Source of the DNA: Eledone cirrhosa
Taxonomy: Eukaryota
Direction: 5' to 3'
DNA length: 64,000 bases
NCBI GenBank assembly: GCA_964016885.1
Contig: OZ024742.1
Coordinates: forward strand, 112,716,001-112,780,000
Each line of letters starts with the position of its first letter. Positions within the stretch are counted from its first letter, which is position 1. Positions 1 to 60,587 of this stretch are shown here, in pieces. A program made the translations under genes and the position numbers. Below the pieces are notes generated by a model. It did not search any database. It was not told the DNA's origin and saw nothing but the letters and a program-made list of their open reading frames with translations.

Positions 1-1175
1 TTTGCCCGGGATCGAGTAGCATGCGCCCGTCGTGGTCCACCAAAGACCGGATCGTGGCTTTGTTGCCACGACGCGCGTCCGCCACTCGGGCCCATTGAAC
101 GGCTTTCGTCCCCTCGTGTCTGAGAACACGCACCCTAGATTTTACAACGCAGCCTTCGTGTTTTGCATTGAAGAATTGGTCAAGGGCCAATCTTTCCACA
201 AGTACGTCGGTCGCGATGTCTTTGTCAAGCGCCTCGTCTAATTTTCTAACTAATTCTCCCTCTGCTCTATTTTTCTCTATTGCTAAAGCCTTACTAAACC
301 TAATGGACTCTATTCTAATTGCTCTTTTCAGAGCAAACCACCACTTGTTGTTGACGATGGCCCTCGTCAACGCCCGCTTAACTAGTTGGCTAATCCGGTC
401 TCTGTAGGCCTTGCGCGCTGGTAAGGACGCGTTTAGCTTCCAGTAGCCGGGTCCCCGTCTATGAAGCCTATCAAAGTCAAGCACACATATCACGAATTTG
501 TGGTCCGTGTAGCTGACTATATTGAATTTTGGACAGCCTATTCTAGACTTATCTATTTCCCTACAACATACTCTATCTAGATATGATCTGGATGACCCTA
601 TGCGATTTGTCCAAGTCCACATTGGTACATTCGGGAAATCCAATCGGTACCTGTTAGACAGTTCAAAACGCCTGAGCAGGTTGGTGAGGCTCTTGGACCC
701 TCCACCCCTATCCACTAATCCAACACAGTCCCAGCGTGCATCTAATATGCCGTTCCAGTCTCCCACTAGCACTAAAGAGCGGGACGTTCCAAGAAAGGTC
801 TCCAGACCCCGGAAGAAATCAGGCCGCCCTGCTCCTGTCGGGGCATAGACGGCCACTAGCGAATGCTTGCCCGTCTCGTTGGTCACGTCCAGATCCACCG
901 ACTTAACTTCTGGGTACAGAAAGATTGCCCGTATGGCGAGATCCAAACCTCTCTGAAAAAGCACAGCAACTCCTCCCCGATACAGGACTGTTGGGAGATG
1001 CGTACACATCGTAGCCGCCGAAGATCGGTGCGAAGGCCCGTGCTTCGGAGATTCTGGTCTCGCTGATGGCCACTTCATCTATGTTTAGTGACCCGAGGTC
1101 GTTGAGCAGGTGGCCCTCCTTCAGTGACGACCCAAAGCCACGCGCATTTATGCTGCCTATTCTGAGTGAGGTCAT
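1..1175 (-). pseudogene. Tx1 ORF2 N-terminal part (APE endonuclease), frameshifted
   Basis: SINARG...ISETR APE motifs; frameshift near 970; DNA closely matches 38220-39400. Confidence 0.9.
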
Positions 1176-1209
1176 GTTGAAGTGGAGTGGAAAATATGGG
1201 AAAGACCAC

Positions 1210-3149
1210 CTCCCTTACTTCTCGTAGAGGAAGGATAGTTTGTCCATCCTTTTCACTGCTTGTGGCCTCCCCCGGAAGGATGTCCTTATAAATCCTCCTG
1301 GAGTGTGTTTGTCGGAAGTCTCCGATGTCTTTGAGGAATTTTTGTTTTAGTGTCGTGTACGTTTTCTGCGTGATGCGAGTAATTTCTATATGTGGAGCTG
1401 GTGTGAACTTTTGGGTTTTTGTGTAGTCCTTTTCTGTGATGCTGGTTTGTGTTGGATGTAGTGTAATAATTGGTTGTTGTTCAAATGTATTGCTGTGTAG
1501 TGTGTATCATTTTGGTTATTTTGTTTGTTTGCGTTTGTTGTGGGTTTGTTTCTGTTTTGATTTTTGGTGACTTTTGTGATGTTGGTGATGGTGGTGTTGG
1601 GGTTAATGATGGTGATGGTGTTGGTGTTTATGGTAATGGGGTTGGTGATGCTGGTGTGAATGGTGGCATACCTGGGCTAACTTTTTTGTTTGATAGTTTA
1701 TTTGATTTCCACTGTAATTTGTTTTTGGAGGGGTTGATTGGGATCTTTTTGGGGGGGTTTCTTTTTCTTTTTTTCGTTTTTTCTGATACCGTTTCCCACT
1801 CCTCATCGTCACAATCTGTCTCCAGTTGCGATAGGTCGGGGAGTGGAAAATCCTCCACAGGCGTTGGTTTTGGGTTGTGGCGTGGTAGATGGTGTAGGCG
1901 CTGGTGCTAGTTCTGGCGCGTTGGGTGCTGGTGGTGTTGCTTTTGCTACTATTGCTGGGTTTGTTGCTGTGACAGTTGCTTTTGTTGTTGCTGCTACAGT
2001 TGTTGCTGCCATTTCTGCTGCTGGTGGTGTTGATGGATGAGTCACTGGGGTGGGTAAGAGAGGTGGCCTCAACCTTTTAGCCTGAGGGCAGAAAGCCCTT
2101 AGGTGGGTTCCTTCACCACAAACGACACACCTATGCCTTTCTCCCTCGACGATTACGGTGAGGTGGCTGCCGTCGGTGAGGTCTATTACTTCTGGGATCT
2201 CCCCAATGCTTTTTTGGTCCACTTGGATCAGGTGCTCCATCCCTGATACGTCCATTTCGCCTGCTTTTCTTTCGCTTTTTCGATTATCTTGGTGTTGGCT
2301 TCGATGCCGGCGAGGACGGCAGCCATTAGCCAGGGAATTTCGATGGCCGGTGGAACGTAGGTCACCCTGATCTTTACGAGTCTCTGGCCACAATAGCTTG
2401 GGACGAGTGTGAAGTCGTCACTTCTTAATGGGCCATGGAGTGTTCTCTGGCCTCCTGTGGTGTTTCAAAGGACACGTCCACGGTTTCATATTTCTGCACA
2501 CGTCTGATGTCGGTTTTTTTTGCCCACACATGTCCCAAATATTTTTGGACTTGGGACTCGGATGCCCGTTCCATTCGGCGCGATTTTATACGGTGCATAG
2601 GCGCCGATGCTCCATTTTATTGGGTGGTTGAGGGTTGGGCTGTACCAATCGTTCTTTACCATTTGTTTGGCTTCTTCTAATTCCTCCTGATTTACCGGGA
2701 ATGCTTGGCACATTTTTGCTACTCTGGCAAAAGATAGGGTTTTCTTATTCTCATAGTTGCTGTTGTATTTATCGTTATTTTTATTATTATCAATTTTAGT
2801 TTCAGTTGTGGTGGTGGTGGCGTCAGTGGTGTTCGGTGAAGAAGAGTTCATTTCGGTTGAATTCATTTCGATATCACGAGTTAATTTTTTTTTTGTTTCT
2901 GTTGTCGCGTGGTGGTGGTGGTGGTGCATGTGTGTGTGGGGGGGGGTTCGCGGTGGTTGTGGTGGCGGTGGTGGCGGCTTTAACACCTGCAGTCATTGGT
3001 AATGGCGGGAAATAAATGTCTGTCTGAGACAAATTTAAAGTATTGCTACTGCTTATATTTTTAGTGTTGACAAGCGTAGTAATATTTACAATGGTGGTGT
3101 CGGTGTGAGGTGTAAGTTTGTGAGAAAGGAGTGACTCTGAGTCAGCCAT
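1210..3149 (-). pseudogene. Tx1 ORF1 (gag-like, single CCHC knuckle), multiply frameshifted
   Basis: Fragments 2874-3149, 2486-2986, 1809-2393 and 1628-1858 are collinear with ORF1 at 36111-38184 (EELEEAK.MV, P.VID...G, PLPDL). Confidence 0.85.
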
Positions 3150-3362
3150 GTATTTTTGAAAGAAACATTTTTGTTTGATAATTATAAAAGTTTAAATTTT
3201 GGGCTCAAAGCCCCAATCTTTGTGGGTGTCCTTTTCAGATAACAATGTATGTGCACTTATATAAAGTTAACAATAACATTTTACATGAATGGCAATTTTG
3301 AACAATTGAAAATAACAAATCTTTGCGGTCTCACGATGATACGATTTACTACGTAGGTCGCC

Positions 3363-4512: not shown

Positions 4513-4570
4513 TAATAATAATAATAATAACAATAATAAAAAAAAAAAAAAAAATTAAAGAAAATAAGAA
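4513..4570 (+). repeat. (TAA)n and A-rich tail between B1 and A1
   Basis: taataataataataataacaataataaaaaaa... Confidence 0.9.
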
Positions 4571-7500
4571 TGTTATGCAATGTTACCTGAAAAGTAACCC
4601 CAAGGAGAGGGGCTATAGGAAACGGATGCATAACATCTGGAACGAGATTGGTCTATTTAAATTAGATGAACAAAAATCGGCCGGGCAGGCTCGGGTAAAA
4701 AGAACTAATGGGTGGATAAGCGAGCTGGATCTGGAAGAACTGGGCAGAGGGATAAGCTTGGAGATGGAGGGTCGAGTATGCCAGGCAAACGAGCCAGTGG
4801 GAAATGAAGGTGAAGAGGTCGAGAGAACGGAGGAAACACCCGAAGCAGACAATGATCTGAATACTGAGATAAATAATTGTTTCTATTTTTGGCACAAGGC
4901 CAGCAATTATTCCAGTGTATTACTGGTACTTTATTTTATCGACCCGTTAAGGATGAAAGGCAAAGTTAACTTCGGCGGGTCTGGAACTCAGTCCGTAAAG
5001 AGAAGTAACTGTGCTGCAAAGCATGGCGTCCGACGCTCTACTGATACTGCCAATCCACAATACCTGGAACAGAGATACGGCCACTGAGGAGATGAATGCT
5101 GACGGGCTAGGACAAGATTTGGTTGATATCCTAAATTTAGTGGTAGATGAATTGAACAATGATAGTGGGAGACCTATGAACATAAGATTTGTAGACAGGA
5201 AAAAGTTAAAAGAAACAACAGCTAAGGTAAACAAAGTCATCCCATACCTTGAGGCGAGGAGCCTTCACCAGTGCAACAATATCCTCAAAGCAACAGCAAA
5301 TACGGTGAGGAAACTCCTTGGTATTAAAGCGAGAGGAAAAAACAGACAAGAAAGAGCAGAGCCTTGGTGGAAGAAACGACTGAGTGGTCAAATCAGGGAA
5401 ATGAGAAATGACATTGGAAAGCTTGAGTCCCTACTGAATGGGACACTAAAAAACATAGACACTAAAAATAGACTGGAAATAAAGTACAAAACTAGGAGGA
5501 AAAAGCTAAATATGATCATAGAAGAACTGAAGCAACGCATTGTAGCAAAGAGTGCAAAAATCAGGCTTTACGAGAACAGAGTCAGTCAGTATAGACAGAA
5601 CCGCATGTTCGACAACAACCAGAATATGCTGTTTGGACAGTTTGAAGGGAAAGAAAGAAGCAACGACTTGATCCCTGAGGCGGAACAAACTAAAACATTC
5701 TGGTGAGGAATATGGGAGCAGGATGTTAAACATAATGACCAGGCAGTGTGGATTGAGACAGTACAGAAGGAGATCAGTGAACAGGCACACCAACAAACTG
5801 ATTTGAGTATCACAGTTGAAACTCTTAAGGGGCAGGCCAAAAAACTAACCAACTGGAAATAACCTGGCCCAGATGGTGTGCAGGGTATTGGATTAAAAAG
5901 ATAACATCCCTCCACCCGAAACTGTCAAACATGTTCAATGACTGCTTGATGTCAGATGAGGTACCAGAGTGGTTGACAGTTCTGATAATGAAAGACCGAA
6001 TCAAGGGTAATGATGTTACTAACTATAGACCTATCACATGTCTGTCCGTAATGTGGAAGCTGTTGACAAGCATTATGTCAGAGGAAATCTACCATCACCT
6101 CCACACAAACAATATGTTACCGGACGAACAGAAAGGATGCCGAAAGAAGTCACGTGGTACAAATGACCAGTTACTTATTGATAAGATGGTAATGAGGAAT
6201 TGCAAGAGGAGACACACTGGTGTTGCCATGGGATGGATAGACTACAAAAAGGCATTTGACATGGTGCCTCATTCTTGGATCACCAAAAGCCTGGAGATCT
6301 TCAAGGTGGCAGATAACATCAGACAGTTGTTGGGCAAAAGTATGAAGTCCTGGGAAACAGAGTTAACATCAACTGGAAAATCCTTGGGAAGCGTGAAGAT
6401 CAAGAGAGGTATCTTCCAGGGAGATAGCCTGTCCCCTCTGTTGTTTGTCCTTGCCCTGAGTCCCTGACCAGTGTACTGCGAAACGTGAGAACAGGATACA
6501 GGTTGGGAAAGGGAGGGCTTACCATCAATCACCTCCACTTCATGGACGAGCTTAAGCTCTTCGGGAAGTGTGAGAAGGAGTTGCATGTGCTTGTTGACAC
6601 TGTCCGTATTTTCAGCAATGATATATGTATGAAATTTGGTATTAGTAAGTGTGGAGTCATTGTGATGAGGAGGGGTAAGTTGAGCAGAAGTAACGGAATC
6701 CAGATACCAACAGGTGAGATGATTAAGGAAATTGACTCTGAGGAGGGATACAAGTATTTGGGCGTTCTGGAGGCTGATGACATCAAGAACCAAAAAAAAT
6801 GAAGGAATTGATAAGAACTGAATACCTTCGGAGAGTAAGGAGCGTATTAAAGTCACATCTAAACAGTAGGAATGCCATAAGTGCAGTAAATTCCCGAGCT
6901 GTGTCTATTATTAGGTACAGTGCGGGAATTCTGAGATGGAATGTTGCTGAACAAAAAGAAATGGATGGGAAGACTAGGAAGCTATTGACTATCTACAATA
7001 TGTTCCACAAGAGGAGTGATGTCGATAGATTCTACTTAAGGAGATCTAAAGGTGGAAGAGGTCTTATCACATACAGGACTGTGTTCAGATGGAGAAAAAC
7101 AACCTACACAAATACGTGACTGATAGTAAGGAGCCAATGTGCAGAACTGTACTGAACGAGGGGACAATAGGCCGGGGATGTCCAAGGAGGAAATAACATC
7201 AAGGAGAAAGAGCAGCCTTCAGGAAAAATCCCTTCATAGAACCTTCTTTGAGAAAATTGAATTTAGAGATCCACAGACATGGAACTGGTTGAAAAGAGGA
7301 GACCTTAAAAAGGCTACAGAAGGAATGTTAATGGCTGCGCAGGAGCAGGCCCTCAAAACGAAGTAGTTGAAACACCACATTTACAAGGAGGAGGCTAGCC
7401 CACTGTGCAGGATCTGTGGAGAGAGAGAGGAGACTGTGGCTCACATTCTACCCGAGTGTAAACACCTAGCCCAGACTCACTATAAGGGCTGGAGACATGA

Positions 7501-8054
7501 TGTGATGGGCAGGGTGATCCACTGGGACCTATGCAAAGTAAACAATTTACCACATTCTAAGAAGTGGTATGAGCATAAGCCAGAGGCGGTGATAGAAAAC
7601 GATCAGGTGAATGTCCTGTGGGATTTTAGGATACAGACGGACAAGAAACTGGAAGACAATATACCTGACCTGGTGGTTTTGGACAAAGAAAAAAGATCGT
7701 GCCTGATTGTGGATGTGGCCAGCCCATTCGACTCGAGAGTGCATGAGAAGGAGAGGGAGACAATTAACCGATACCAGGACTTAAAGTGGGAGGTAAAAAG
7801 GATTTGGAACTGCCATGAAGTCAAAGTGATCCCGATTGTCATAGGCGCACTAGGGACTATCTCAACAAGTTTCCAGGGATGGTTAAAGAAAATTGGCCCC
7901 TTCACGCTTTTTGGAACGCTTCAAAAGTCATGCTTGCTTGGAACAGCAAGAACCCTCCGATACGTCCTGAATATCTGAGGCTGCAGGTAGTGGCTTGATA
8001 TTCATTTCAACAAACTTTCCAGTTAACTAACATCAATGACTGAGACTCAAAGTG
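4571..8054 (+). mobile_element. R4/Dong-clade family A, copy A1, slightly 5'-truncated, decayed
   Basis: GYRKRM..IW N-terminal motif, RT ([31 protein letters not shown]), [16 protein letters not shown] and RLE; several stops and frameshifts; (TAA)-like tail from 8055. Confidence 0.93.
4878..5058 (-). mobile_element. tRNA-derived SINE inserted antisense into A1
   Basis: Absent from the homologous site in A2 and A3 (GATAAATAATACCTGG in A3); AAT on both sides; B-box-like GAGTTCCAGACCC on the minus strand; second copy at 13313. Confidence 0.85.
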
Positions 8055-8970
8055 TAATAACAATAACAATAATAATAATAAGAAGAAGAATAAGAAGAAG
8101 GGGAGAAGACGCACGTGGTGGTAGAAGGTCATGAAATCGCTCCCGTAAGTTTTTGATTTTTAACATTTAAATCAATTTTGAAATAACAATTCTTAGTACA
8201 AATGATGCATAAATCACCGAATCAAGTCTCATAAAAATTCGGATCCATAATATATTGTTATATCGCTCAAATATACAATTTTCTATTATATATTTTATAT
8301 TCAAAAAAGAAAATGGTTATAAATGGAAGAAAACCCCCTCTGTCTACACTATATAGAACAGCCAAATAACAGCAATTTCACCAACATCAGAAACTATATA
8401 CCCCACCTACCCCGTCACCCCGCTGTGTACACTAAATATAACAGCCAGATAACGGCAATTTCACCACCACCACCACCAATCCGAGCATCATAATAATAAT
8501 TACTATTATTATTGTCTCAAGTTTTAACAAAATGTTTAAATCCAATATTAAGAAAATTCGTCATCACATATATTAAACATACGCGACACAAACGCATAGA
8601 TACTACAGATCAAACAAAACTAGTCTATTCGACAAAACTCAGTAACGACAACGCCACCGCCGCCAACACTCCATCCATCATTGCTACCACAATCCCATCA
8701 CCGCCGCCACCACTCCTTCATTGCTACCACCACTATTCCCCTGTTAACTTAAGAAAGGGCAAGGTGGCGGTATCACTAGAAAAGGGAGAGGCTAGCAAAA
8801 GATATAAATATATTGACTTAGTGACCCGGCCAGCGGCCAAACGTCAACAACTATGGCACTGCTGGCTCCCCCCTTCCCCACCAACAATATAAGAAGCCCC
8901 AGCACCACCACCACCGACATAGCCAACAACAATAACAGGCAACTTCAGCAAAAAGTATATTATATTATTG

Positions 8971-9016
8971 TAATGCACTGGGTAATTGCTGGCCTTGTGC
9001 CTGGAGTGGAGTCACT
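8971..9016 (+). mobile_element. 3' fragment of the same SINE family
   Basis: TAATGCACTGGGTAATTGCTGGCCTTGTGCC matches the SINE 3' region. Confidence 0.6.
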
Positions 9017-12269: not shown

Positions 12270-14830
12270 AAATCATAAAGTAGGCGAGAAACGTTGCATG
12301 GGCCTGAGACATAGAATAAACTTAAACAGTTTCGATATAGTGATGGAAAAAAGAAACAGCGATTTAAGGCAAAATTCAATTTGGGTAGCTGCTATACAAA
12401 TAGACACAACGAACAGATGGTTCTCTTCAAATCGGAACATGCTCTTTAGAACTCTGTTAGGTGAAAATGGCAAACAAGTTGCACCTAGTGCTGAAGCACC
12501 CACATAATTCTGATTAAATATATACGAGGTTGAATAGAGCATAACAAAAATGCGGAATTGGTAATTGAAATTGAGTGTAAGATATCTAGCGAACGAAAAC
12601 ATAGATGGGAATGAATAATCAGGGAAATACTTTAAGAGGAAGCAAGAAAATGTCAAACTTGAAATCTCATGAACAAGGATTCTGGTTTATAATAGTTAAA
12701 TATGTTCATTTATCACGTAAAATAATGTGTAGTACATGAAGTTCTACATTGGATGATTGACGGAAAACAACACAAACAAGGAAGGATGAGATACAGAGGT
12801 CCGTTAGGTGGAAGGTGTAGGCTGATTGCATAGGAAGTACAGGAAGCCGTTGACAGATATATTTGCTGCAAAAGTAGATGATCACTTACTTCAAAATGAG
12901 AGGCTGTCTGTCGAGTAGAAGGTGTGTAGAAAACATTCTCATTGCAATATTGGCTATCAGGTATAACTAAAATTACATCTTAAGAATTTATGCATAGCTT
13001 GGAAAGATTATAATAAAAACTTTCGCATGGTCCCACATTCATGGGTACTGAAATATTTGAGAATATTTAGGATTGCAGACTATGGTAATAATATAAAAGC
13101 CTCTACTTTGCACCAGGGAACACAAACCTGCATGGAGGAAATAAATTCCTAGGTGTGATGAATATAAGGAGATGAATATTTGAAGGAGATTCCTTCTTAC
13201 GACAGTCTTTGTGATTGCAATGGTTTCACTATCGATTGTCTTATGGTATACAGATATTGGCCATCAGATGGAAAACAGTAAACCTATGATCAATCATTTA
13301 CTTTTTAAGAATTATTTCTACTTTTGGCACAATGTCAGCAATTACACAGTACATTACTGGTACTTTATTTTATCGACCCCGTAAGGATGAAAGGCAAAGT
13401 TAACCTCGACGGGATTTGAACTCAGACCGTAGAGGGACGTAACTATGCTGGAAAGCATGGCGTCCGACTCTCTATTGATACTGCCAAATAATGATCTGGA
13501 GCCCAGTGGTGTCGCGAATCATCGGGATGGAGTTTGATATTGCAAGAATTACCACCCTGACTATAAAGAGATTTTAACGCGTACATTATAGTGTCATTGA
13601 TTTACCTGATTAATAGTCGATTGTTTACCCCGTGAATAATGCATTCAAATATTTGGGAGTTGTTTAGCTTCAGTTGTAAATGGAAATACGAATGGAAATA
13701 TGAAGGAAGTCTAACTAAATGAACTAGAAGTGGTATTAAAAATAAAATAAAATCGGAATAACTCAGTTTTCCCTATCAATGTATGGGCTATGAAAGTTAT
13801 TATATTAGTGGAACAATGATGGATTGCAGAGGTTGGATAGGCTAAACTGAAAGAATAGGCTTGACAATGTTGCCATGATTCCAAAGGGAAATGTCATCAG
13901 GCTATGTACACCACGTAACGTAGGAAGACAAGGATTCGTAAGTTTGAAAGATTGTGTGGCTAATAAAAGCAGGACGTTTATATTGATATTTGGCCAGTAG
14001 TAAAGACGATGTTTTATAGTATGTATGCTGCCAAAAGCAAAGGCCTATGCATTGAAACCATTAAAGATAAAGAAAATTGCAAACAAGCTGCTGGCTGAGA
14101 AGCTGATCACAAGAGAGGATATGGAATTACATGGTCAAATTGAAGGGGAAATTAAGGATGTTAAAGTAGTAGGCTCTTTGTAGAATTCGTTGACAACAGG
14201 GGACAGAACGTTTATTAACAGTAGCTGAAGATCACGCAAATAAACACAAAGGTAATAAGTAATATATGTATCCCAGATAAACCAAATAAGTACAGGTTAA
14301 GTTGAAAGGGGGTGGAATGTGTATCAGATCATGAGTGCCTGTGGTTCGCTTGTGCGTGTGGAATATATAACGCATCAGGATAATTTGTGCTGATATCTCC
14401 ACTGGAGTTTATGCAAGAAATATGGGTTTACAAAAACCGAGAAGTGGTATTACGACAAACCAGAAAAGGCCCTAAAATATCAAACTGGGAAATTCTCGTG
14501 GGAGTTCAAAATTGAAACATATAGGGCACTTCAACCTACAAAGCCAACAACCTTTGGGTGAAGAAACTTAGAGAAAGGAGGTGTTTGTTGATCGAAGTAG
14601 TTTACACATGAATAGAAGAGAAAACGAGAAAACAGCAAAGTATGCAGATTTGAATATTTGAAAATAGATTTTGAGAGAATGCAGGATCGGAAAACAAGAG
14701 TGGGATCAACTGCGATTTGAATACTTGATTCAGTGGCAGAAACCCTTCCAAAAATCCGTGGTAATATTGGAATCAGTCCATGTATTACGACATAGTAAAA
14801 TAATCACTTTAGCGAACAGCAAGTATCCTA
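12270..14830 (+). mobile_element. Heavily decayed R4/Dong-like element (family C)
   Basis: Collinear motif remnants: NLCIAWKDY..MVPHSW (~12985-13045), IFEGDS, INHLLF, KYLGV (~13650), YLHWSLCKKYG..EKWY..KPE (~14390-14465). Confidence 0.75.
13313..13489 (-). mobile_element. tRNA-derived SINE inserted antisense into the RT motif of family C
   Basis: Homologous to 4878-5058; B box GAGTTCAAATCCC on the minus strand; AAT on both sides. Confidence 0.85.
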
Positions 14831-24065: not shown

Positions 24066-26581
24066 TCCGAATGTACCAATGTGTACATGGGCAAACCGCA
24101 ACGGCTCATCTAGATCGTATTTTAGATAGGGTATTCTGTAGGGAAACAGATAAGGCTAGTGTAAATTGTCCACAATTTAAAGTAGTCCAGTACACGGACC
24201 ACACATTCGTGACCTTTGAGGTTGACTTAGATAGACTCCATAGGCAAGGGCCCGGTTACTGGAAGCTGAACGCGTCTTTACCGGCGCGCAAAGCTTACAG
24301 AGACCGGATTAGCGAATTAGTTTAGCGTGCGTTGACGAGTGCGATCATTAACAACAGGTGTTGGTTTACCCTGAAAATGGCTATTAGAGAAGAATCGATA
24401 AGGTTTAGCAAAGAAGTAGTGATAGAGGAAAATAGAGTAGAGGGAGAGCTAGTTAGAAAAGCAGAAGATCGTTTAGGACAGGCATCGCAACCAACGTTCT
24501 TGCGTCGAGATTGGCACTCGACCAATTCTTTTACGCAAAGCAGAAGGCTGCGTAGTCAGAGCTAGAGCGCTTGATCTAAGACACGAGGGGACGAAAGCCG
24601 TTCAATGGGCCCGGCTGGTGGAGGCGCGACGTGGCAACAATTCCACAATACGGTTTTGCCTGATCAAAACGAGTTCATACTGCTCGAATTCGAGCAGATG
24701 TGTGCGGCTTTTCAACAGCACTTTTCTCGATTACACGGGTGCGGTAGCGGGCAGGTTCGGAGTATGGACTTCGGTGCGAACTTCGACTGATTGCCGCGGC
24801 TCTCGACGACCGCAGCACAGTGCTGCAAAAGGCCTATAACAGCAGGTGAAATACGGGAAGCGATGTATAACTGCACGAGGGGTAAATTGCCAGGTTTGGA
24901 TGGTCTACTCTACGAGCTTTATGCGTACATCCCAGACTTGTTCGGCGACCTCTTGGCAGATATCTATTGCAACTGGCAGCAGAACGGAAGCATTCCCAGT
25001 GTTGTGAGCCGGGGAGCGGTAGCGCTACTGAGAAAAGATCCGAACAAAGGGGGCGTTATAGATAACTCAGGCCCATAACTCTGCTAAACACATAGTTCAA
25101 CATTTTGGCCAATGTGTTAGCAAAGAGATTGGCGCTTGTCGTCGGTGATCTGGTGGGAGAGGTGTAGACATGCACCATTCCGGACAGATCTATCCACGAT
25201 AACCTCCATCTCATGCGATACATCATAGAGAGGGTGGTTAAGGAATATGGCACAGGTGGAGCCCTGATCAACTTCGAGTGACCATCGGTACCTGGCTGCG
25301 GTCCTTGAGGTGGCCGGTTTCAGACCAGCATTTAGAGGCTGGATCGCTGCGATGCACAGCGACATCTGCTCGAATGTGATGGTGAATGGTTACCTGTCTA
25401 AGCCGTTCGGCATCATTCGCTCGGTCCACCAAGTTTGTCCACTCTCGTCCCTCTTGTACATACCGGCCCTCGAGCCATTACTGCACAAATTGGAGACCAA
25501 GAAGTGGGTCCCCGCGAAACGTCGGTAGGCTTGCAACTCGGCACCTGGAGAGGCAAGTCCATGTCCTCCGAAAGGGGAAGGACCGTTTAAGTTGCTCGGA
25601 GTTTGGTTCGGTCCCGACCTCCAGATGGTAAAAAAAACTGGAGCTCGGAAGCTGGAATGTCTCCAAGCGCTCACCGCTCTCTACCAGTTGGTTACTGATA
25701 TCGGTGGAACATCCACCTTGGCGTTCTATAGAGGGCTAATAGAGGGGTAAAGCAATGGCGAATAAGATCCACTGTTTGCTCTCTTCAAGAGAACTTTCAT
25801 TCCGGGTCTTATGGTCAATTTCCAGAAATCCTTGGCCTGGCAGTACTACCAGGAAGCTTTGGATGTTCTGGATAATATCTACAGGGACGGAGGTGCTGTC
25901 AGGCTGTCAGCCGAGTCTGTCCGAGATGCGCTCAGGACGACAAAACCGTCCTGCACACACTTGTTCAGTGCCCAAAGTTTGGTGACTTGTCGAACAGTCG
26001 CTGTCGCGTGTAGGACGGATACGGTTATCGATGCAGTCCATTGTGCAGATAGCACCGCCATCCGCCTTTAAACAGGAGGAATGGTAAGCAGTGTTCAACT
26101 GCCTGGTGGCCATGGCGAAAGAGATTGTGTGGTGAAAGGTTGAAAGGCTTGAAGAAAGACACTTTCCTCTACGGCCAATCCCTAATTAACTTTTTCAAGT
26201 TTCACTTGAAGAGCAAACTTAGGGTGGAAAGGCAAGAGCTGGCTTCTAGTAAGCTTGTTGAAAGGTGGGTGAAAGTGGCGAATCTTGTCCGAGTGAACGG
26301 TTCCATTCTGAGTATGCGCCTGTAGTCTGCGGAGTGGCAAAGCTGAGAGAGGGCGCTTGCCCTGGTGTCCAGGTTGGCCGTGGTCTTTTGTGTGGTTTTC
26401 GCCAAAAATGACCCTCCGTGTTTTCCCCTATTGGGGGAAATTTTTGTTGTTTGAATTTTAATTTATTTTACAGGTTTCTGTCTTTTAAAACCTTTTTACA
26501 CGGCCAAAACCCACTTTGTATCGTCCTGTGCTGTCTGTAATGTGTTTCTTCATGTTAGCCACTGTGGCCAATAAATAAACC
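24066..26581 (+). mobile_element. Tx1/L1-clade copy T2, 5'-truncated, internally deleted, decayed
   Basis: GPGYWKLNAS, GK.PGLDGL, SIHDNLHLMRY and FFKFHLK match ORF2 38220-41639; the 3' end CCACTGTGGCCAATAAATAAACC is followed by (ATT)n. Confidence 0.92.
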
Positions 26582-26619
26582 ATTATTATTATAAAGTAGA
26601 AACAATTATTATAATTATT

Positions 26620-35878: not shown

Positions 35879-36110
35879 TTATTATTATTATTATTGAATG
35901 CCATGGTTGACGGAGGCTCGGCTCTGTAAGGTATAGTAATTTTTAACCGATAAAACAATTGTGAATTGTTTAAAACTTGAACCAAATTGTTGATAAAGAC
36001 ACCCTCCTCCTCGTGAGAAGGGTCTTTCTGTCCGTTATTTGGCCCTTCGGAGTTAAATAACCAGTTATTGGGGTTTTGTACCCAAAATTTCATTTTAAAC
36101 AAAAAACAAC

Positions 36111-38184
36111 ATGGCTACGACAAAGAAATTTCATACGTCACTCCCACTCATTCCGTCTTCTTCTTCCTCAATCATCACTACAGCAGAGAGAAGATTGTCT
36201 CTCTCCCTCCCTTCTTTAAATGTGTCTCTCTCCCTCCCTTCTCTTTCGCAAGTGACGAAAGAAAAGAAAAGTCTCGTGCAAAGCGTGCAAGGTTTCTCCA
36301 CGACGACGACGACAGCGACGAAACAGGTGTGCGGGAAATACGAAAACCCAGTTCATTCGTCTGACGTCAGGAATAATAGCAGTAGCAGCCGTAATAACAA
36401 CAGCAACAGTGACAATGAAAACAACAGTAGCAGCCGCAACAGCATCACCAGCAGCATAAACAACAACAGCATTAGCAGCAGCAACACCAACAACAACCAC
36501 AGCAACAGCGGCGGAGGCAGTAGTCGTAGTACCTGCAGCAACAACAAAAGTACCAGCAACTCTGACGACAACAACAACAGCAGAGAAAAACCAATCTCAT
36601 TTGCAGGTATTGCGAAAAACTTGGAAACAATCCTCATAACAAATGAGGAATTAGAGGAAGCGAAGAAGATGGTGACAAAGAACGGACACCGAGCAATCTG
36701 CAAGGCAGCGGAAAAAATTTTCGAAACGCAAGAGCACTGTACGGTCACGTACCGTACAGTAAGTACAAAATCCCGTAGGGTGGAAAGAGCCACAGAGGCC
36801 CAAATACAAAAAGCCTTGGGGTTTGTGTGACAGCGGAAAACGCACATCACCCGAGGCAAAAAATATGCCACCGTAGACGTACTTTTTGCCACACCCCAGG
36901 AGGCAAAGTCCCAATCAGTAGTGACCCTAAGGAGCGAGGAAATGGTGTTGGTGCCCTCCTACTGCGGGCAAAAAAATTGTGAGGGTCAAACTGACCCACG
37001 TCCCCCCCGGAATGAGCCCTTCTTGGCTGGCCGCGTCTGTCCTCGTCGGAATCGAGGACAAAACAACTGTACTGCAAGTACAGAGAAAAGTAAGAGAAGA
37101 TTGGGTCGGCTCCTCCATTGAGATGCTAATCCAAACCAACCAGGAGTGCGTCGAAGCTATCCCGGATGTGATAGACTTCGATAACGGCACTCAACTGCCC
37201 ATAAGTGTTGAGGGCAAACGCCCGAAATGCTTTCGCTGTGGATCGAAGACTCACCTCAGGGGCTTCTGCAACGAGAAGACCCTGAGAAAGGAGAAAACCC
37301 CCCTCCTTCCGAATCCGGCTCCACGGCTACCAGCAACAGGACAAGCGGCAACCAGGAACGATAGGTCCGTGGCACCCATACCCACTCCACAGAAATCAAA
37401 AACAGCAGCAGCAGTGGAAATATTAACAACAACGACAGCAATACCAAATGCAGCTGCAACAGAGACTCCAGTGCAAACATCACCAACAACAACAAGTGAA
37501 AGAGTGGAGCTGGTACCCCTCCCCGACCTCACAGAATCAGACATGGAGTGTGAGGTGGGAGAGGGATGGCAAAAGGTCGCAAGAAGGCACAAACGCAGAA
37601 GCAGCGCATCGTCGCCTTTGAAAAGGGAGGAAAGAAATGAGAAAAGGGTAAAGTCTACTGCAAAGAGACCCACAGCAGCAACACCGGCACCACCATCACC
37701 ACCGGCGACAACCCCACCGCCAACAACACCTTCAACACCACCACCACAAGCACCAACATCGCAAACACAACAACAAAACACACACACCCAGCAACAACGA
37801 CAAGAAAATAGCAGAACCACACCCCACCCCCAGAAAAACAAATGCACGGCAATAAACACACACAACAAGAAACTAATGACTTACATAATTGAACACACAG
37901 ACATTTCACAACAGGACTACATAATACCAGCACCAATCAAAACGCCAACTAACATAAGACTGCTAAAAATAGCACAGAAACAATACACAAATATTAAAAC
38001 GAAATTTCCCAACGCAGTTGGTGATTTCAGGGACCTAGGAGGAACCATTAATCGAAGAGTATATTCAGACATTCTCTTAGAAGAGCCGACGACCAGCCGA
38101 AGGGACGATTCAACGGTCCCTTCACCAGACGATCAAGTGAAAAGGGATGTAAAAACCATCCCTCCTCTACCAAAAATACGGTAA
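36111..38184 (+). pseudogene. Tx1 ORF1 (Asn/Ser-rich N-terminus, RRM-like region, CFRCGSKTHLRGFC knuckle, Pro/Thr linker), with one stop and one frameshift
   Basis: The TGA at 36828 and the extra A at 36970-36976 are TGG and in-frame sequence in T1. Confidence 0.88.
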
Positions 38185-38219
38185 GTGGTCTTTCCCATCT
38201 TTTCCACTCTATTTTAAAC

Positions 38220-41200
38220 ATGACCTCACTCAGAATAGGCAGCATAAATGCGCGTGGCTTGGGGTCGTCATGGAAGCAGGGTCACCTGCTCAACGACCTC
38301 AGGTCACTAAACATAGATGTAGTGGCCATCAGCGAGACCAGAATCTCCGAAGCACGGGCCTTCGCACCGATCTTCGGCGGCTACGATGTGTACGCATCTC
38401 CCAGCCGTCCTGGATCCGGTGGAGGAGTTGCTGTACTTTTTCGGAGAGGTTTGGATCTCGCCATACGGGCCATCTTCCTGGACCCAGAGGGTAAGCTGGT
38501 GGTGCTGGACGTGACCAGCGGAGACGGGCAAGCTTTCAGGCTAGTGGCCGTCTATGCCCCGACAGGAGCAGGGCGGCCTGATTTCTTCCGGCGTCTGGAG
38601 ACCTTTCTTGGAACGTCCCGCTCTTTAGTGTTAGTGGGCGACTGGAACGGGATCTTAGATGCACGCTGGGACTGTGTGGGATTAGCGGATAGGGGTGGAG
38701 GGTGCAAGAGCCTCACCAACCTGCTCAGGCGTTTTGAACTGTCTGACAGGTACCGATTGGATTTCCCGAATGTGCCAATGTGGACTTGGACAAACCGCAT
38801 AGGGTCATCCAGATCATATCTAGATAGAGTATTTTGTAGGGAAATAGATAGGTCTAGCATAGGCTGTCCACAATTCAAGATAGTCAGCTACACGGACCAC
38901 AAATTCGTGATCTGTGTGCTTGACTTAGATAGGCTTCATAGACGAGGACCCGGCTACTGGAAGCTAAACGCGTCCTTACCAGCGCGCAAGGCCTACAGAG
39001 ACCGGATTAGCGAACTAGTTAAGCGGGCGTTGACGGGGGCCATCGTCAACAACAAGTGGTGGTTTGCTCTGAAAAGAGCGATTAGAATAGAATCGATTAG
39101 GTTTAGTAAGGCTTTAGCAATAGAGAAAAATAGAGCAGAGGGAGAACTAGTTAGAAAATTAGACGAGGCGCTTAGCAAAGGCATTGCGACCGACGTGCTT
39201 GCGGCGAAATTGGCCCTTGACCAATTCTTCAATGCAAAGCACGAAGGCTGCGTTGTCAGAGCTAGGGTGCGTGCTCTCAGACACGAGGGGACGAAAGCCG
39301 TTCAATGGGCCCGAGTGGCGGAGGCGCGTCGTGGCAACAAAGCCACGATCCGGTCTTTGGTGGACCACGACGGGCGCATGCTACTCGATCCCGGGCAAAT
39401 GTGTGAAGCTTTTCAGCGACACTTCGCTCAGCTGTTCGGGGGCAGCGGGGGGCCGGGTAGAGGGATGGACTTTAGTGTCTACCTCGACGGGCTGCCGCGG
39501 CTCTCGGCCACTGAGGCGAGGTGTTGCGAAAAGCCGATAACAGCCGCTGAAGTACGGGAGGCAATGACTGGCTGCACAAGGGGTAAATCGCCTGGTTTGG
39601 ATGGTCTGCCCTATGAACTTTACGTACAGATGCCAGACTTGTTCGGAGGCCTCTTGGCGGACGTCTACTGCAACTGGCAACAGAACGGGAGAATTCCCAG
39701 TTCTGTGAGCCGAGGAGCGGTGGCACTGCTGAGAAAGGATCCGAACAAGGGGGATAACATAGACAATTTCCGGCCCATAACTCTGCTAAACACAGAGTTT
39801 AAGATTTTGGCCAAGGTGCTAGCAAAGAGGTTGGCGCTTGTCGTTGGTGGTCTGGTGGGAGAGGCGCAGACATGCGCCATTCCCGACAGATCCATCCACG
39901 ACAACCTCCACCTCATGCGATACATCGTAGAGAGGGTAGCTAGGGAACCTGGCACGGGTGGGTCCTTGATCAATTTAGATCAGTCGAAAGCTTTCGATAG
40001 GGTCGACCATCGTTACCTAGCGGCAGTCCTGAGGGCGGCTGGCTTTGGGCCCGTCTTCAGAGGCTGGATCGCTGCCATGCACAGCGACATCTGCTCTGTG
40101 GTGAGAGTGAACGGTCACCTGTCGGAACCGTTCAACATCATGCGCTCGGTCCGCCAAGGATGTCCCCTCTCGTCCCTCTTGTACGTATTGACTCTCGAGC
40201 CATTACTGCACAAACTGGAGACGTTGAGGGGAGTCCCGCGCGAACTAGGATGCGGAAGATCCGTGTCAGCATATGCGGACGATGTCACCGTAGTGGTGTC
40301 GAACGCCAAACACATCGAGGCGATCGGCACTACACTAAGAGAATACGAAGCGGTGACAGGAGCAATGATCAACCAGGAAAAGTCAGTGGGCCTGCAGCTC
40401 GGCACCTGGAGAGGCAGGTCCATGCCGTCCAACAGCGTCGTCGGGCGCTGGACGGACGGACCGGTTAAATTGCTAGGGGTCTGGTTCGGTCCGGACCTCC
40501 AGACGGACAAAAACTGGGACGAGGTGACGAGCAGGGTGGCTTCTCTCACCCAGAAATGGGCGGAGAGGAAGCTATCCCTGAAAGGTCGAGCGGAGGTGGC
40601 TAACGCGTACATCGCGTCTGTCATCTGCTACCGCCTAACCGTCGTACCTTGTCCTAAGCCTCGCCTGACTGCGCTGGAGCGTTTGCTCTTTCGCTTTTTG
40701 TGGAAGGGACGTGCTCCGATGGTCAGGCGGTCCATCTGTTGTCAACACCCGCTACGTGGAGGGCTGGGCATGCCGTGGCTGATGATGCGCAGGCACGCGC
40801 TCAGGCTACGACATCTCCACCTCTTCCTCGACGGTGATCAGGTGTGGTCGCCGTTTGCTAGACGCGTTTTTCCCCAGCTCGTTTCCTTGACGGAGCTGCA
40901 GTCCTGGGTCAAGCGAAGACCGAGAGGGAGCGCCTGGAGACTGGAATGTCTTCAGGCGCTCACAGCCCTCGACCAATCGGGCAATGTGATCGGTGGAAAC
41001 TCCACCTCGGCGTTCTATAGAGGATTAGTGGAGGGGAAGAGCGACGACGTACTTGGGGAAACTCTAGGCGTCGACGAAAATCAACTAGCCAATCTCTTCG
41101 GAAGAACTTTCGGGCCAGGGCCTATGGACAACTTCCAGAAATCTCTGGCCTGGCAGTGCTACCGAGGAGCCTTGCCAGTTCGGGATAAACTCTACAGGCA

Positions 41201-41639
41201 TGGAGGTGCCGTCAGCCGGGCATGTCCGAGATGCGCGCAGGGCGACGAAACCGTCCTGCACGCACTCGTCCAGTGTCCGAAAATTGCTGACTTGTGGGTT
41301 TATGTCGAACACCTGCTGTCGCGTTTAGGACGGATCCAGCTATCATCTGAGTCCATCGTGAGGATTGCCCCGCCCTCCTCCTTTAGCCGGGAAGGGCAGG
41401 CAGTTTTTATCTGTCTGGTGGCCATGGCGAAAGAGATAGTATGGTGGACACGTTTGAAAGGGCTGAAGACGAGCACTTACCTCTTCGGTGATGCTCTGAT
41501 TGACTTTTTCAAATTTCATTTGAAAAGGAAAATCAGAGTAGAGAGGGAAGTGCTCTCTTCCCAGCATTTTGTTGAAAGATGGGTGAGAGAAGCAAGAATG
41601 GCCCGAGTGAATGGGCCGACTCTGAGTATATATCTGTAA
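38220..41639 (+). CDS. Tx1 ORF2: APE endonuclease + reverse transcriptase + C-terminal CCHC, intact (1139 aa)
   Basis: SINARG, SETR, GDWN, SYLDR, TDH; KSPGLDG, FRPITLLN, DQSKAFDRV, RQGCPLS, YADD; CPRC..DETVLHALVQC. Confidence 0.96.
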   Translation: MTSLRIGSINARGLGSSWKQGHLLNDLRSLNIDVVAISETRISEARAFAPIFGGYDVYASPSRPGSGGGVAVLFRRGLDLAIRAIFLDPEGKLVVLDVTSGDGQAFRLVAVYAPTGAGRPDFFRRLETFLGTSRSLVLVGDWNGILDARWDCVGLADRGGGCKSLTNLLRRFELSDRYRLDFPNVPMWTWTNRIGSSRSYLDRVFCREIDRSSIGCPQFKIVSYTDHKFVICVLDLDRLHRRGPGYWKLNASLPARKAYRDRISELVKRALTGAIVNNKWWFALKRAIRIESIRFSKALAIEKNRAEGELVRKLDEALSKGIATDVLAAKLALDQFFNAKHEGCVVRARVRALRHEGTKAVQWARVAEARRGNKATIRSLVDHDGRMLLDPGQMCEAFQRHFAQLFGGSGGPGRGMDFSVYLDGLPRLSATEARCCEKPITAAEVREAMTGCTRGKSPGLDGLPYELYVQMPDLFGGLLADVYCNWQQNGRIPSSVSRGAVALLRKDPNKGDNIDNFRPITLLNTEFKILAKVLAKRLALVVGGLVGEAQTCAIPDRSIHDNLHLMRYIVERVAREPGTGGSLINLDQSKAFDRVDHRYLAAVLRAAGFGPVFRGWIAAMHSDICSVVRVNGHLSEPFNIMRSVRQGCPLSSLLYVLTLEPLLHKLETLRGVPRELGCGRSVSAYADDVTVVVSNAKHIEAIGTTLREYEAVTGAMINQEKSVGLQLGTWRGRSMPSNSVVGRWTDGPVKLLGVWFGPDLQTDKNWDEVTSRVASLTQKWAERKLSLKGRAEVANAYIASVICYRLTVVPCPKPRLTALERLLFRFLWKGRAPMVRRSICCQHPLRGGLGMPWLMMRRHALRLRHLHLFLDGDQVWSPFARRVFPQLVSLTELQSWVKRRPRGSAWRLECLQALTALDQSGNVIGGNSTSAFYRGLVEGKSDDVLGETLGVDENQLANLFGRTFGPGPMDNFQKSLAWQCYRGALPVRDKLYRHGGAVSRACPRCAQGDETVLHALVQCPKIADLWVYVEHLLSRLGRIQLSSESIVRIAPPSSFSREGQAVFICLVAMAKEIVWWTRLKGLKTSTYLFGDALIDFFKFHLKRKIRVEREVLSSQHFVERWVREARMARVNGPTLSIYL

Positions 41640-41924
41640 ACTAAAGGTGGAAAACTGGGAGAGGGCACTTGCCTTGGTGGTCAGGGTCATTGTGGCTTTT
41701 TACTGGGCTTTCTCCACAAATGTCCCTCCGAAGTCTCCCCCCTATTGGGGAATTTTTCATTGTTATTTTCATTGTTATTTTTGTTACATCCTCTGTTTTT
41801 GTTTTTTTACACGCAGAAATGCCCATTTGTACCGTCCTGCATTGTCCTGCACTGTCCTTAATGTCTACTTTATGTAAACCCTTGTGGTTAATAAAGAAAT
41901 CATTATTATTATTATTATCCAGAC

Positions 41925-41955
<31 letters not shown>

Positions 41956-47133: not shown

Positions 47134-50100
47134 GAATGCCATGGTTGACGGAGGCTCGGCTCTGTAAGGTATAGTAATTTTTAACCGATAAAACAATTGT
47201 GAATTGTTTAAAACTTGAACCAAATTGTTGATAAAGACACCCTCCTCCTCGTGAGAAGGGTCTTTCTGTCCGTTATTTGGCCCTTCGGAGTTAAATAACC
47301 AGTTATTGGGGTTTTGTACCCAAAATTTCATTTTAAACAAAAAACAACATGGCTACGACAAAGAAATTTCATACGTCACTCCCACTCATTCCGTCTTCTT
47401 CTTCCTCAATCATCACTACAGCAGAGAGAAGATTGTCTCTCTCCCTCCCTTCTTTAAATGTGTCTCTCTCCCTCCCTTCTCTTTCGCAAGTGACGAAAGA
47501 AAAGAAAAGTCTCGTGCAAAGCGTGCAAGGTTTCTCCACGACGACGACGACAGCGACGAAACAGGTGTGCGGGAAATACGAAAACCCAGTTCATTCGTCT
47601 GACGTCAGGAATAATAGCAGTAGCAGCCGTAATAACAACAGCAACAGTGACAATGAAAACAACAGTAGCAGCCGCAACAGCATCACCAGCAGCATAAACA
47701 ACAACAGCATTAGCAGCAGCAACACCAACAACAACCACAGCAACAGCGGCGGAGGCAGTAGTCGTAGTACCTGCAGCAACAACAAAAGTACCAGCAACTC
47801 TGACGACAACAACAACAGCAGAGAAAAACCAATCTCATTTGCAGGTATTGCGAAAAACTTGGAAACAATCCTCATAACAAATGAGGAATTAGAGGAAGCG
47901 AAGAAGATGGTGACAAAGAACGGACACCGAGCAATCTGCAAGGCAGCGGAAAAAATTTTCGAAACGCAAGAGCACTGTACGGTCACGTACCGTACAGTAA
48001 GTACAAAATCCCGTAGGGTGGAAAGAGCCACAGAGGCCCAAATACAAAAAGCCTTGGGGTTTGTGTGACAGCGGAAAACGCACATCACCCGAGGCAAAAA
48101 ATATGCCACCGTAGACGTACTTTTTGCCACACCCCAGGAGGCAAAGTCCCAATCAGTAGTGACCCTAAGGAGCGAGGAAATGGTGTTGGTGCCCTCCTAC
48201 TGCGGGCAAAAAAATTGTGAGGGTCAAACTGACCCACGTCCCCCCCGGAATGAGCCCTTCTTGGCTGGCCGCGTCTGTCCTCGTCGGAATCGAGGACAAA
48301 ACAACTGTACTGCAAGTACAGAGAAAAGTAAGAGAAGATTGGGTCGGCTCCTCCATTGAGATGCTAATCCAAACCAACCAGGAGTGCGTCGAAGCTATCC
48401 CGGATGTGATAGACTTCGATAACGGCACTCAACTGCCCATAAGTGTTGAGGGCAAACGCCCGAAATGCTTTCGCTGTGGATCGAAGACTCACCTCAGGGG
48501 CTTCTGCAACGAGAAGACCCTGAGAAAGGAGAAAACCCCCCTCCTTCCGAATCCGGCTCCACGGCTACCAGCAACAGGACAAGCGGCAACCAGGAACGAT
48601 AGGTCCGTGGCACCCATACCCACTCCACAGAAATCAAAAACAGCAGCAGCAGTGGAAATATTAACAACAACGACAGCAATACCAAATGCAGCTGCAACAG
48701 AGACTCCAGTGCAAACATCACCAACAACAACAAGTGAAAGAGTGGAGCTGGTACCCCTCCCCGACCTCACAGAATCAGACATGGAGTGTGAGGTGGGAGA
48801 GGGATGGCAAAAGGTCGCAAGAAGGCACAAACGCAGAAGCAGCGCATCGTCGCCTTTGAAAAGGGAGGAAAGAAATGAGAAAAGGGTAAAGTCTACTGCA
48901 AAGAGACCCACAGCAGCAACACCGGCACCACCATCACCACCGGCGACAACCCCACCGCCAACAACACCTTCAACACCACCACCACAAGCACCAACATCGC
49001 AAACACAACAACAAAACACACACACCCAGCAACAACGACAAGAAAATAGCAGAACCACACCCCACCCCCAGAAAAACAAATGCACGGCAATAAACACACA
49101 CAACAAGAAACTAATGACTTACATAATTGAACACACAGACATTTCACAACAGGACTACATAATACCAGCACCAATCAAAACGCCAACTAACATAAGACTG
49201 CTAAAAATAGCACAGACACAATACACAAACATTAAAACGAAATTCCCCAACGCAGTTGGTGATTTCAGGGACCTAGGAGGAACCATCAATCGAAGAGTAT
49301 ATTCAGACATTCTCTTAGAAGAGCCGACGACCAGCCGAAGGAACGATTCAACGGTCCCTTCACCAGACGATCAAGTGAAAAGGGATGTAAAAACCATCCC
49401 TCCTCTACCAAAAGTACGGTAAGTGGTCTTTCCCATCTTTTCCACTCTATTTTAAACATGACCTCACTCAGAATAGGCAGCATAAATGCGCGTGGCTTGG
49501 GGTCGTCATGGAAGCAGGGTCACCTTCTCAACGACCTCAGGTCACTAAACATAGATGTAGTGGCTATCAGCGAGACCAGAATCTCCGAAGCACGGGCCTT
49601 CGCACCGATCTTCGCCGGCTACGATGTGTACGCATCTCCCAGCCGTCCTGGATCGGGTGGAGGAGTTGCTGTGCTTTTTCGGAGAGGTTTGGATCTCGCC
49701 ATACGGGCCATCTTCCTGCACCCAGAGGGTAAGCTGGTGGTGCTGGACGTGACCAGCGGAGACGGGCAAGCTTTCAGGCTAGTGGCCGTCTATGCCCCAA
49801 CAGGAGCAGGGCGGCCTGATTCTTCCGGCGTCTGGAGACCTTTCTTGGAACGTCCCGCTCTTTAGTGTTAGTGGGCGACTGGAAAGGGATCTTAGATGCA
49901 CGCTGGGACTGTGTGGGATTAGCGGATAGGGGTGGAGGGTGCAAGAGCCTCACCAACCTGCTCAGGCGTTTTGAAATGTCTGACAGGTACCGATTGGATT
50001 TCCCGAATGTGCCAATGTGGACTTGGACAAACCGCATAGGGTCATCCAGATCATATCTAGATAGAGTATTTTGTAGGGAAATAGATAGGTCTAGCATAGG

Positions 50101-54588: not shown

Positions 54589-54649
54589 TATTACACTTGC
54601 GTCTCAAAAATCGATGTTCGAGGTAATTGTATATATATATATATATATA

Positions 54650-54705
54650 TCTACATATATCTATCAATCTATCTATCTATCTATCTCTCTATCTATCTAT
54701 CTATG

Positions 54706-54754
<49 letters not shown>

Positions 54755-54766
54755 GTCTGTCTGTCT
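54650..54766 (+). repeat. (ATCT)n microsatellite, 5' flank of T5
   Basis: Direct sequence. Confidence 0.95.

Positions 54767-60391: not shown

Positions 60392-60587
<196 letters not shown>

Follow-up and report, generated by a model that had tools for sequence, protein, structure and literature searches.

Shared 3' hairpins are the rule for the SINE/LINE pairs of the L2, CR1 and RTE clades, in which the short element borrows the end that the enzyme of the long element reads. Zebrafish L2 elements, for instance, require a stem-loop, and above all its loop, and in the L2-clade systems UnaL2/UnaSINE1 and ZfL2-1/2 the stem-loop is followed by short tandem repeats, with loop specificity and a swappable stem demonstrated by assay in the portions of PMC4176376 that describe them. 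Within the L1 group, the monocot LINE1-1_ZM and its partners ZmSINE2/3 are presented as having a common 3' hairpin of -11 to -18 kcal/mol, with a conserved loop and compensatory stem changes, inside roughly 50 nt of shared sequence (Ohshima 2012, PMC3472496). For the Tx1 clade, the nearest proposal concerns crocodilians, where Tx1-Mar has been put forward as the mobiliser of SINEU on the basis of a shared target preference, with tandem SINE insertions also reported; SINEU elements carry U1/U2 heads and poly(A) tails, and according to the available text of that paper, a search for a LINE with the same 3' end found none (Kojima 2015, PMC4494074). Tx1 families that insert in microsatellites have been named as well, such as Kibi in TC and Koshi in TTC repeats (PMC4494074, PMC3812793). 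The SINE/LINE pair table of PMC3747384 contains neither an octopus SINE nor a Tx1 partner.

The octopods bring both kinds of element together. According to the sections of PMC13282606 on repeat content, SINEs make up 11.6% of the genome of O. vulgaris, in which 13 L1-Tx1 families have recently been active, and the tRNA-type CORE-SINEs OR1 and OR2 of octopus are described as carrying a central block that recurs across phyla (PMC4758252, PMC4824008); in the literature found, no partner LINE is given for any octopus SINE. The present analysis concerns a stretch of 64,000 nt from Eledone cirrhosa (hereafter the window), in which a SINE and several Tx1-type LINEs lie close together. Judging from their 3' ends, the SINE and the ATT-type Tx1 elements probably form a Tx1-driven SINE/LINE pair that recognises RNA structure.

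Elements of the window

A nest of non-LTR retrotransposons fills the window, as judged by self-comparison and Pfam (Table 1). Two of its families combine a reverse transcriptase with a C-terminal restriction-like region and have 3' ends in (TAA)n; from their protein motifs and from the TAA target, we take these to be Dong/R4-like. TAA is also the target given for Dong in the passages of PMC3812793 on that clade, and here it stands on the element's own strand at every Dong end displayed. The APE-type elements are represented by five pieces, T1 to T5, whose ORF2 carries the Tx1 domain set (PF03372, PF00078 and PF13966 in Pfam) behind an ORF1. In phmmer, the ORF2 of T3 scores 327 bits against Xenopus Tx1 ORF2 and 180 bits against human L1 ORF2p, and its best named relative, from Argonauta hians, is 69% identical; the reverse transcriptase tree (FastTree), drawn without an L1 row, does not resolve the link of the octopod elements to Xenopus Tx1. 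A target-sequence preference, as in Tx1, is seen at few sites, with ATT runs at T1, T2 and T3 and TATC at T5. All catalytic motifs that were checked are present in T3 ORF2, and T3 ORF1 is interrupted by one stop and one frameshift. T4 is no independent insertion, and the 5' boundary of T5 was inferred from a repeat junction.

Two features of the arrangement are recorded in their own right. An 11-kb unit of two Dong elements and one Tx1 is duplicated in tandem at 99.5% identity across 30664-52842; the breakpoints fall at an ATT run and close to where ORF2 ends, and the duplication is a recent event or an assembly artefact. From 3363 to 47133, Dong and Tx1 elements alternate within shared trinucleotide runs and are oriented against one another, the tail of each being a site for the other.

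Table 1. Positions of the retrotransposon features in the window, in order of coordinate
Feature	Position	Strand	Remarks
Tx1-type LINE T1, 5' part only	1..3362	-	(ATT)n at 5' junction; 3' end beyond window
Dong/R4-like LINE, family A	4557..8055	+	Host of S1; (TAA)n end on own strand; compared as a rival partner
3-nt ATT gained on insertion	4875..4877	-	Duplicated target or a single tail unit; twin at 5059-5061
SINE copy S1, short form	4878..5058	-	Inserted antisense in Dong-like LINE
S1 terminal stem-loop	4890..4902	-	4 bp, loop CTTGT; loop 16 nt before end
Central block	4941..4965	-	Common to SINE-like elements of other animals with other tails; 5 metagenome contigs
B-box-like motif	4978..4987	-	Nearer to consensus in S2
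A-box-like motif, tRNA-type head	5038..5052	-	Pattern match in S1 and S2
SINE copy S3, 5'-truncated	8970..9014	+	Flanks ATTATT and CTTATT
SINE copy S2	13313..13487	-	87% identity with S1; broken stem; flanked by ATTAT and ATTCTT
Tx1-type LINE T2, 5'-truncated, decayed	24067..26581	+	Stem-loop 26558-26568; (ATT)n behind; 5' flank not ATT and not a repeat
12-nt stub, last bases of the SINE	26593..26604	+	Inside ATT run behind T2
Tx1-type LINE T3, full length	35896..41901	+	(ATT)n on both sides
T3 ORF2, 1139 aa, open	38220..41639	+	APE endonuclease, reverse transcriptase, zinc-binding region
Second conserved hairpin (C4...G4) of Tx1 3' UTR	41738..41750 (T3)	+	Also in T2 (26425) and T5 (60266)
T3 terminal stem-loop, AATAAA and end	41877..41901	+	
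T4, copy of T3 by 11-kb tandem duplication (99.5%)	47134..52842	+	Without 3' end
Tx1-type LINE T5, another family	54768..60392	+	Stem-loop 60369-60379; (TATC)n at 3' end and inferred 5' end

The SINE is short, dispersed and of high copy, with a target-site signature at insertion and with 5' truncations. S1 lacks about 6 nt of the family 5' end, as placed by the loose contig ends at 5058. Its A- and B-box-like motifs stand 65 nt apart in S1 and S2, as for a pol III promoter, by loose patterns that we assume for these boxes; neither copy has a run of four T, and ARAGORN and Rfam gave no tRNA match by which to name a parent of the head. The stub at 26593-26604 is likely an extremely truncated copy by the look of its bases, and within the window the SINE tail pattern occurs only there and in S1 and S2. 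The tail of S3 (9002-9014) departs from those of S1 and S2 mostly through A-to-G substitutions, as could arise by editing of the RNA prior to insertion. In sequencing run X1, 86,606 contigs fall on the stretch around S1, the summed depth on the SINE being about 100-fold that on its Dong flanks, a figure that is not a copy number. The same run holds a longer subfamily, with about 35 nt extra at 4908-4912, a different sequence upstream of 4908 and the same tail, and head-to-tail SINEs are represented by 162 contigs in the four strongest joints.

The central block was also met in SINE-like elements with different heads and tails on unrelated metagenome contigs (L001-L005). It was compared with the Vhc subdomain, a candidate that was rejected since the printed consensus sequences differ, and it was not found as an element in the published supplementary data searched. 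Pattern scans for the SINE in viral and genome contigs gave no match.

Sequence of T3 turned up elsewhere: 13 runs under 10 organism labels contain at least half of its words (38200-41950), with no RNA run among those listed for it. Runs X5 and X7 have 27 and 28 contigs on the SINE stretch, traces only, and the raw reads of run X22, under one such label, have 0 of 12.8 million records on it and constitute no test. T3 in runs of other labels is likely trace DNA, as are the X5 and X7 contigs, and horizontal transfer was not adopted as an account of the many labels.

The 3' module and its stem-loop

The initial annotation had set the end of the SINE beside those of the Tx1 elements, and the ends that it quoted are reproduced in the sequence: S1 closes with TGGC-CTTGT-GCCA, 12 nt and then ATTATT on the minus strand, T3 with AACC-CTTGT-GGTT (41877-41901), T2 with GCC-ACTGT-GGC (26558-26581) and T5 with GCC-CTTGT-GGC (from 60369). 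Its statement that both the loop and the spacing are kept stood for the spacing, which measures 16 nt from the end of the loop to the flanking repeat in six of six ends (T2, T3, T5, S1, S2 and S3), and gave way for the loop, which reads ACTGT in T2 and ATTGT in S2. The six ends align gap-free in MAFFT. With a profile of 25 columns, made from the T2, T3 and T5 ends only and scored on both strands, the last 25 nt of S1 rank 4th among 127,952 positions, the first three being the training ends; the S2 end ranks 18th and that of S3 971st. S1 shares 15 of the 25 bases with each Tx1 end, and just upstream of the stem its likeness to T3 and T2 drops to 4/20 and 5/20, a pattern that tail capture would produce. 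The likeness was already known when the 25-nt frame was fixed; when the S1 end is shuffled, 9 of 200,000 sequences reach its score, none of them with the stem in register. A looser descriptor finds five sites in the window, four of which are element ends, against 1.35 expected from Markov shuffles; this count is weak by itself, so that the coincidence with element ends carries the weight. Neither AATAAA nor the C4...G4 hairpin, which lies 106-143 nt upstream of the terminal loop in T3, T2 and T5, is present in the SINE.

A profile search of prokaryote genome contigs led to host-derived Tx1 arrays, of which 58 loci were taken from the best 80 of 142 matches; viral contigs yielded no relative in a single-protein scan and three partial matches in a profile scan. 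In 43 loci of one assembly, ORF2 is 41% identical to that of T3, and the tree places this lineage as sister to the octopod elements, on one branch with support of 100 (FastTree). The motif GGC-CTNGT-GCC stands 3' of ORF2 in all 33 loci whose sequence extends 1 kb or more past the stop (10 of the 43 were too short and were dropped). It lies at a distance of 593-700 nt from the stop and 21-25 nt ahead of AATAAA, is followed by a second hairpin and then AATAAA, and occurs in 0 of the 43 ORF2s. The 33 loci are overlapping units of two families from one assembly, and they are thus counted as about two observations. Directly behind AATAAA the sequence becomes variable, and in locus L019 a 5'-truncated unit joins at this point, which marks it as the 3' end of the sister lineage; owing to the second hairpin, the distance from module to end is not the 16 nt of the octopod elements. 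The same hairpin at the 3' end of a distant sister lineage from another host argues that the motif belongs to the LINE lineage. By profile score, the more distant Tx1 relatives (26-32% identity, L047-L063) do not show the module.

The loci L006-L046, L049 and L059 come from an assembly labelled as a bacterial MAG, with many contigs of tandem Tx1 arrays that are evidently eukaryotic host DNA, and other MAGs (L047-L063) likewise hold Tx1 arrays. The second 3' hairpin of the sister arrays varies in sequence and keeps its pairing. Several of the distant relatives end directly at the 5' end of U1 snRNA (L047:4751, L048:7806, L052:7724, L053:7271 and L062:7764), at junctions within a U1/U2/5S tandem cluster (Rfam), and a conserved GC-WTTGC-AC motif lies shortly upstream of these ends; they look like a U1-targeting Tx1 group with a 3' signal of its own.

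The shared stem of the six ends measures 3 bp, as also obtained by RNAalifold, with a fourth pair in three of them. Compensating changes in this stem, which the annotation had asserted, were found in part: double changes occur at three of four pairs, yet the events are few (4 of 24 cells), since T2 and T5 have the same stem. The stem of S2 is broken. Shifting the register by 1-3 columns lowers pairing from 83% to 17-54%, and the covariation score is reached by 2 of 500 shuffles, a figure for six ends that is not a probability. When eight sister-lineage ends are added, 91% of cells pair and double changes amount to 6 of 56.

The weakness of the stem invites a different account, unlikely on balance, in which the tail did come from a Tx1 ancestor and the recognised signal is the primary sequence with its AUU repeats, or a longer SINE hairpin, the small stem being incidental. 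The hairpin is no more stable than shuffled sequence (z -0.1 to -1.65); its pairing in whole-RNA folds is 0.11 in S1, 0 in S2 and T5, 0.6-0.7 in T3 and T2 and 0-0.99 in nine sister-lineage ends; and its closing pair and the GT of the loop are invariant, hence no covariation comes from them. In the short SINE form, a longer and more stable hairpin competes for the same bases (in S3, -10.4 against -3.0 kcal/mol), and it fits the two changes by which the small stem of S2 is broken. However, the double changes affect three stem positions across the SINE, the octopod Tx1 elements and the sister lineage, the roughly 35 extra nucleotides of the long subfamily fall inside the competing hairpin, and the Tx1 ends cannot form that hairpin.

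Target sites and the choice of partner

All four SINE pieces have ATT-type flanks, and ATT is found on the sense strand at the 5' end of T1, at both ends of T3 and at the 3' end of T2. A difference between SINE and Tx1 target sites, which would speak against the pair, was therefore not encountered for T1, T2 and T3; the proposal of an ATT-type target common to the SINE and Tx1 holds for these three and fails for T5, which lies in (TATC)n repeats and thus has the loop and is no ATT-type partner. T5 seems to represent a Tx1 family that targets (TATC)n, such repeats being present at its two inferred ends (54632-60420), and it demonstrates that RNA signal and DNA target can change independently of each other. 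The 3' flank of T3 may be the duplication breakpoint. The empty site of S1 is preserved in paralogous Dong copies and in run X5, where contig 9 connects 4874 with 5059, and the comparison gives a gain of 3 nt. In run X1, 1,685 contigs run past the SINE 3' end with an ATT-repeat consensus at an agreement of 0.42, a consensus from one run that counts only contigs already matching the ATTATT of the reference. The tail of the SINE and its target cannot be fully told apart.

The partner might also belong to another clade. The main rival, that an RTE LINE (or one of CR1 or L2) drives the SINE, the likeness to Tx1 being due to the commonness of small terminal hairpins or to an old tail now read by another enzyme, is less likely; in two hosts the module is linked to the Tx1 branch. 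RTE-BovB is described as strongly expanded in octopuses (PMC8967140), the RTE-driven SINEs covered in PMC6007223 have microsatellite tails and an upstream T-stretch, and in run X1 the SINE strand is rich in T in the consensus that precedes the SINE 5' end; a T-rich consensus also arises, however, from out-of-phase ATT repeats, and the gain at S1 is 3 nt. The comparison of partners was confined to the Dong ends of two families.

The Dong/R4 elements with their TAA repeats are very improbable as mobilisers of the SINE. They have the same trinucleotide target, S1 lies inside a Dong copy, and Table 1 of PMC13282606 gives Dong-R4 as the largest recently active LINE group in O. vulgaris; but the sense strand reads TAA in Dong against ATT in the SINE and Tx1, no BLAST match connects the SINE with either Dong family, and by the Tx1-only profile the four Dong ends score -15 to -27 bits, at ranks 29,157 to 103,234. 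A better match of the SINE tail to another LINE clade, named by the annotation as the outcome to look for, was thus not seen with the two Dong families that were compared, for which a Dong partnership is largely refuted. A chance likeness of A/T-rich ends is equally hard to credit: the motif is short and was noticed after the fact, and with a similar profile scores of 11-17 bits arise by chance in 1.13 Mb of other loci, but the register is fixed by the element ends, shuffles seldom reach the score and the motif recurs at the ends of the sister lineage.

Proposed mechanism and relation to known systems

Set against the properties of stringent pairs, the SINE and Tx1 have a shared 3' tail in register, a compensatory stem-loop, with few events and a competing fold in the SINE, and, for T1, T2 and T3 and not for T5, the same terminal repeat and insertion signature. 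Since the SINE and Tx1 share the stem-loop at the same distance from ATT repeats, Tx1 likely supplies the copying enzyme, and the suggestion of the initial annotation that Tx1 mobilises the SINE through a structured 3' end is supported by the sister-lineage hairpin and by the common ATT polarity, opposite to that of Dong. In the Tx1-driven pair, the SINE would have taken its tail, the last 25 nt, from a Tx1 ancestor, the module consisting of a 3-bp stem, a 5-nt loop ending in GT, 16 nt and ATT, and an ATT-targeting Tx1 family would provide, in trans, the ORF2 protein that copies it. This protein would bind the loop in a read-through transcript of pol III and nick the AAT strand with its endonuclease, the AUU units after the module would pair with the nicked strand and prime synthesis, and reverse transcription would begin at a fixed distance from the loop. 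The binding, nicking and priming steps follow the analogy of stringent L2 elements, as far as PMC4176376 describes them, and of target-primed reverse transcription; by the same analogy, we infer that ORF2 recognises RNA structure. A start set by structure would explain why neither partner has poly(A) despite the AATAAA-type signals of the LINE (no poly(A) lies behind AATAAA in T2 and T3), and the mechanism would likewise account for the insertion of new copies into ATT tails left by older copies.

With a candidate enzyme named, the SINE expansion of octopuses becomes testable and its landing sites predictable, and a 13-nt signal with a separable DNA target (ATT or TATC) offers a compact system for mapping the RNA recognition of ORF2. 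To our knowledge, the known cases of strict 3' recognition in the L1 group are those of plants and an alga, to which an example from animals would be added by a Tx1 branch whose hairpin persists at 41% ORF2 identity. Whether the L1 group started with strict 3' recognition that was later relaxed in mammals is a question raised in PMC3747384. As a tentative and broader picture, an old invertebrate Tx1 branch may read its RNA by a tiny conserved hairpin and not by poly(A), which would make it the first animal representative of such reading in the L1/Tx1 group, and a single SINE lineage of octopods may have captured this hairpin and used the enzymes of ATT-targeting Tx1 elements for much of the octopus SINE expansion, thereby seeding its own ATT landing sites.

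No report of this SINE/Tx1 pair was found in the literature searched, which did not extend to Repbase, Dfam, SINEBase, the octopus SINE paper of 1994 or a number of supplements. As far as that search reaches, the pair stands as a candidate new SINE/LINE partnership; a Tx1-SINE partnership as such had been proposed before, from target preference only in the available text of PMC4494074. Among the described systems, OR1 and OR2 resemble the present SINE as tRNA-type octopod SINEs with a cross-phyla central block, a likeness by description only. Kibi and Koshi insert in microsatellites, as T1 to T3 and T5 do, whereas ATT and TATC are not among the targets named, and no SINE partner is given, in the passages on these families. 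UnaL2/UnaSINE1 and ZfL2-1/2 have the same order of stem-loop and short tandem repeats; in those elements the roles of loop and stem were established by assay, and here they are read from sequence. LINE1-1_ZM and ZmSINE2/3 correspond in the common hairpin, the conserved loop and the compensatory stem changes, but that pair belongs to a plant L1, whereas the present one concerns an animal Tx1 lineage, 25 nt, a stem of 3-4 bp and a microsatellite target. The closest counterpart is SINEU/Tx1-Mar, in which a Tx1-clade LINE is likewise the proposed mobiliser, with a shared target preference and tandem SINE insertions as here. Unlike SINEU, the octopod SINE has no Rfam snRNA match (none was found in the window) and an ATT tail in place of poly(A); it has a tRNA-type head and a 3' module in common with its LINE.
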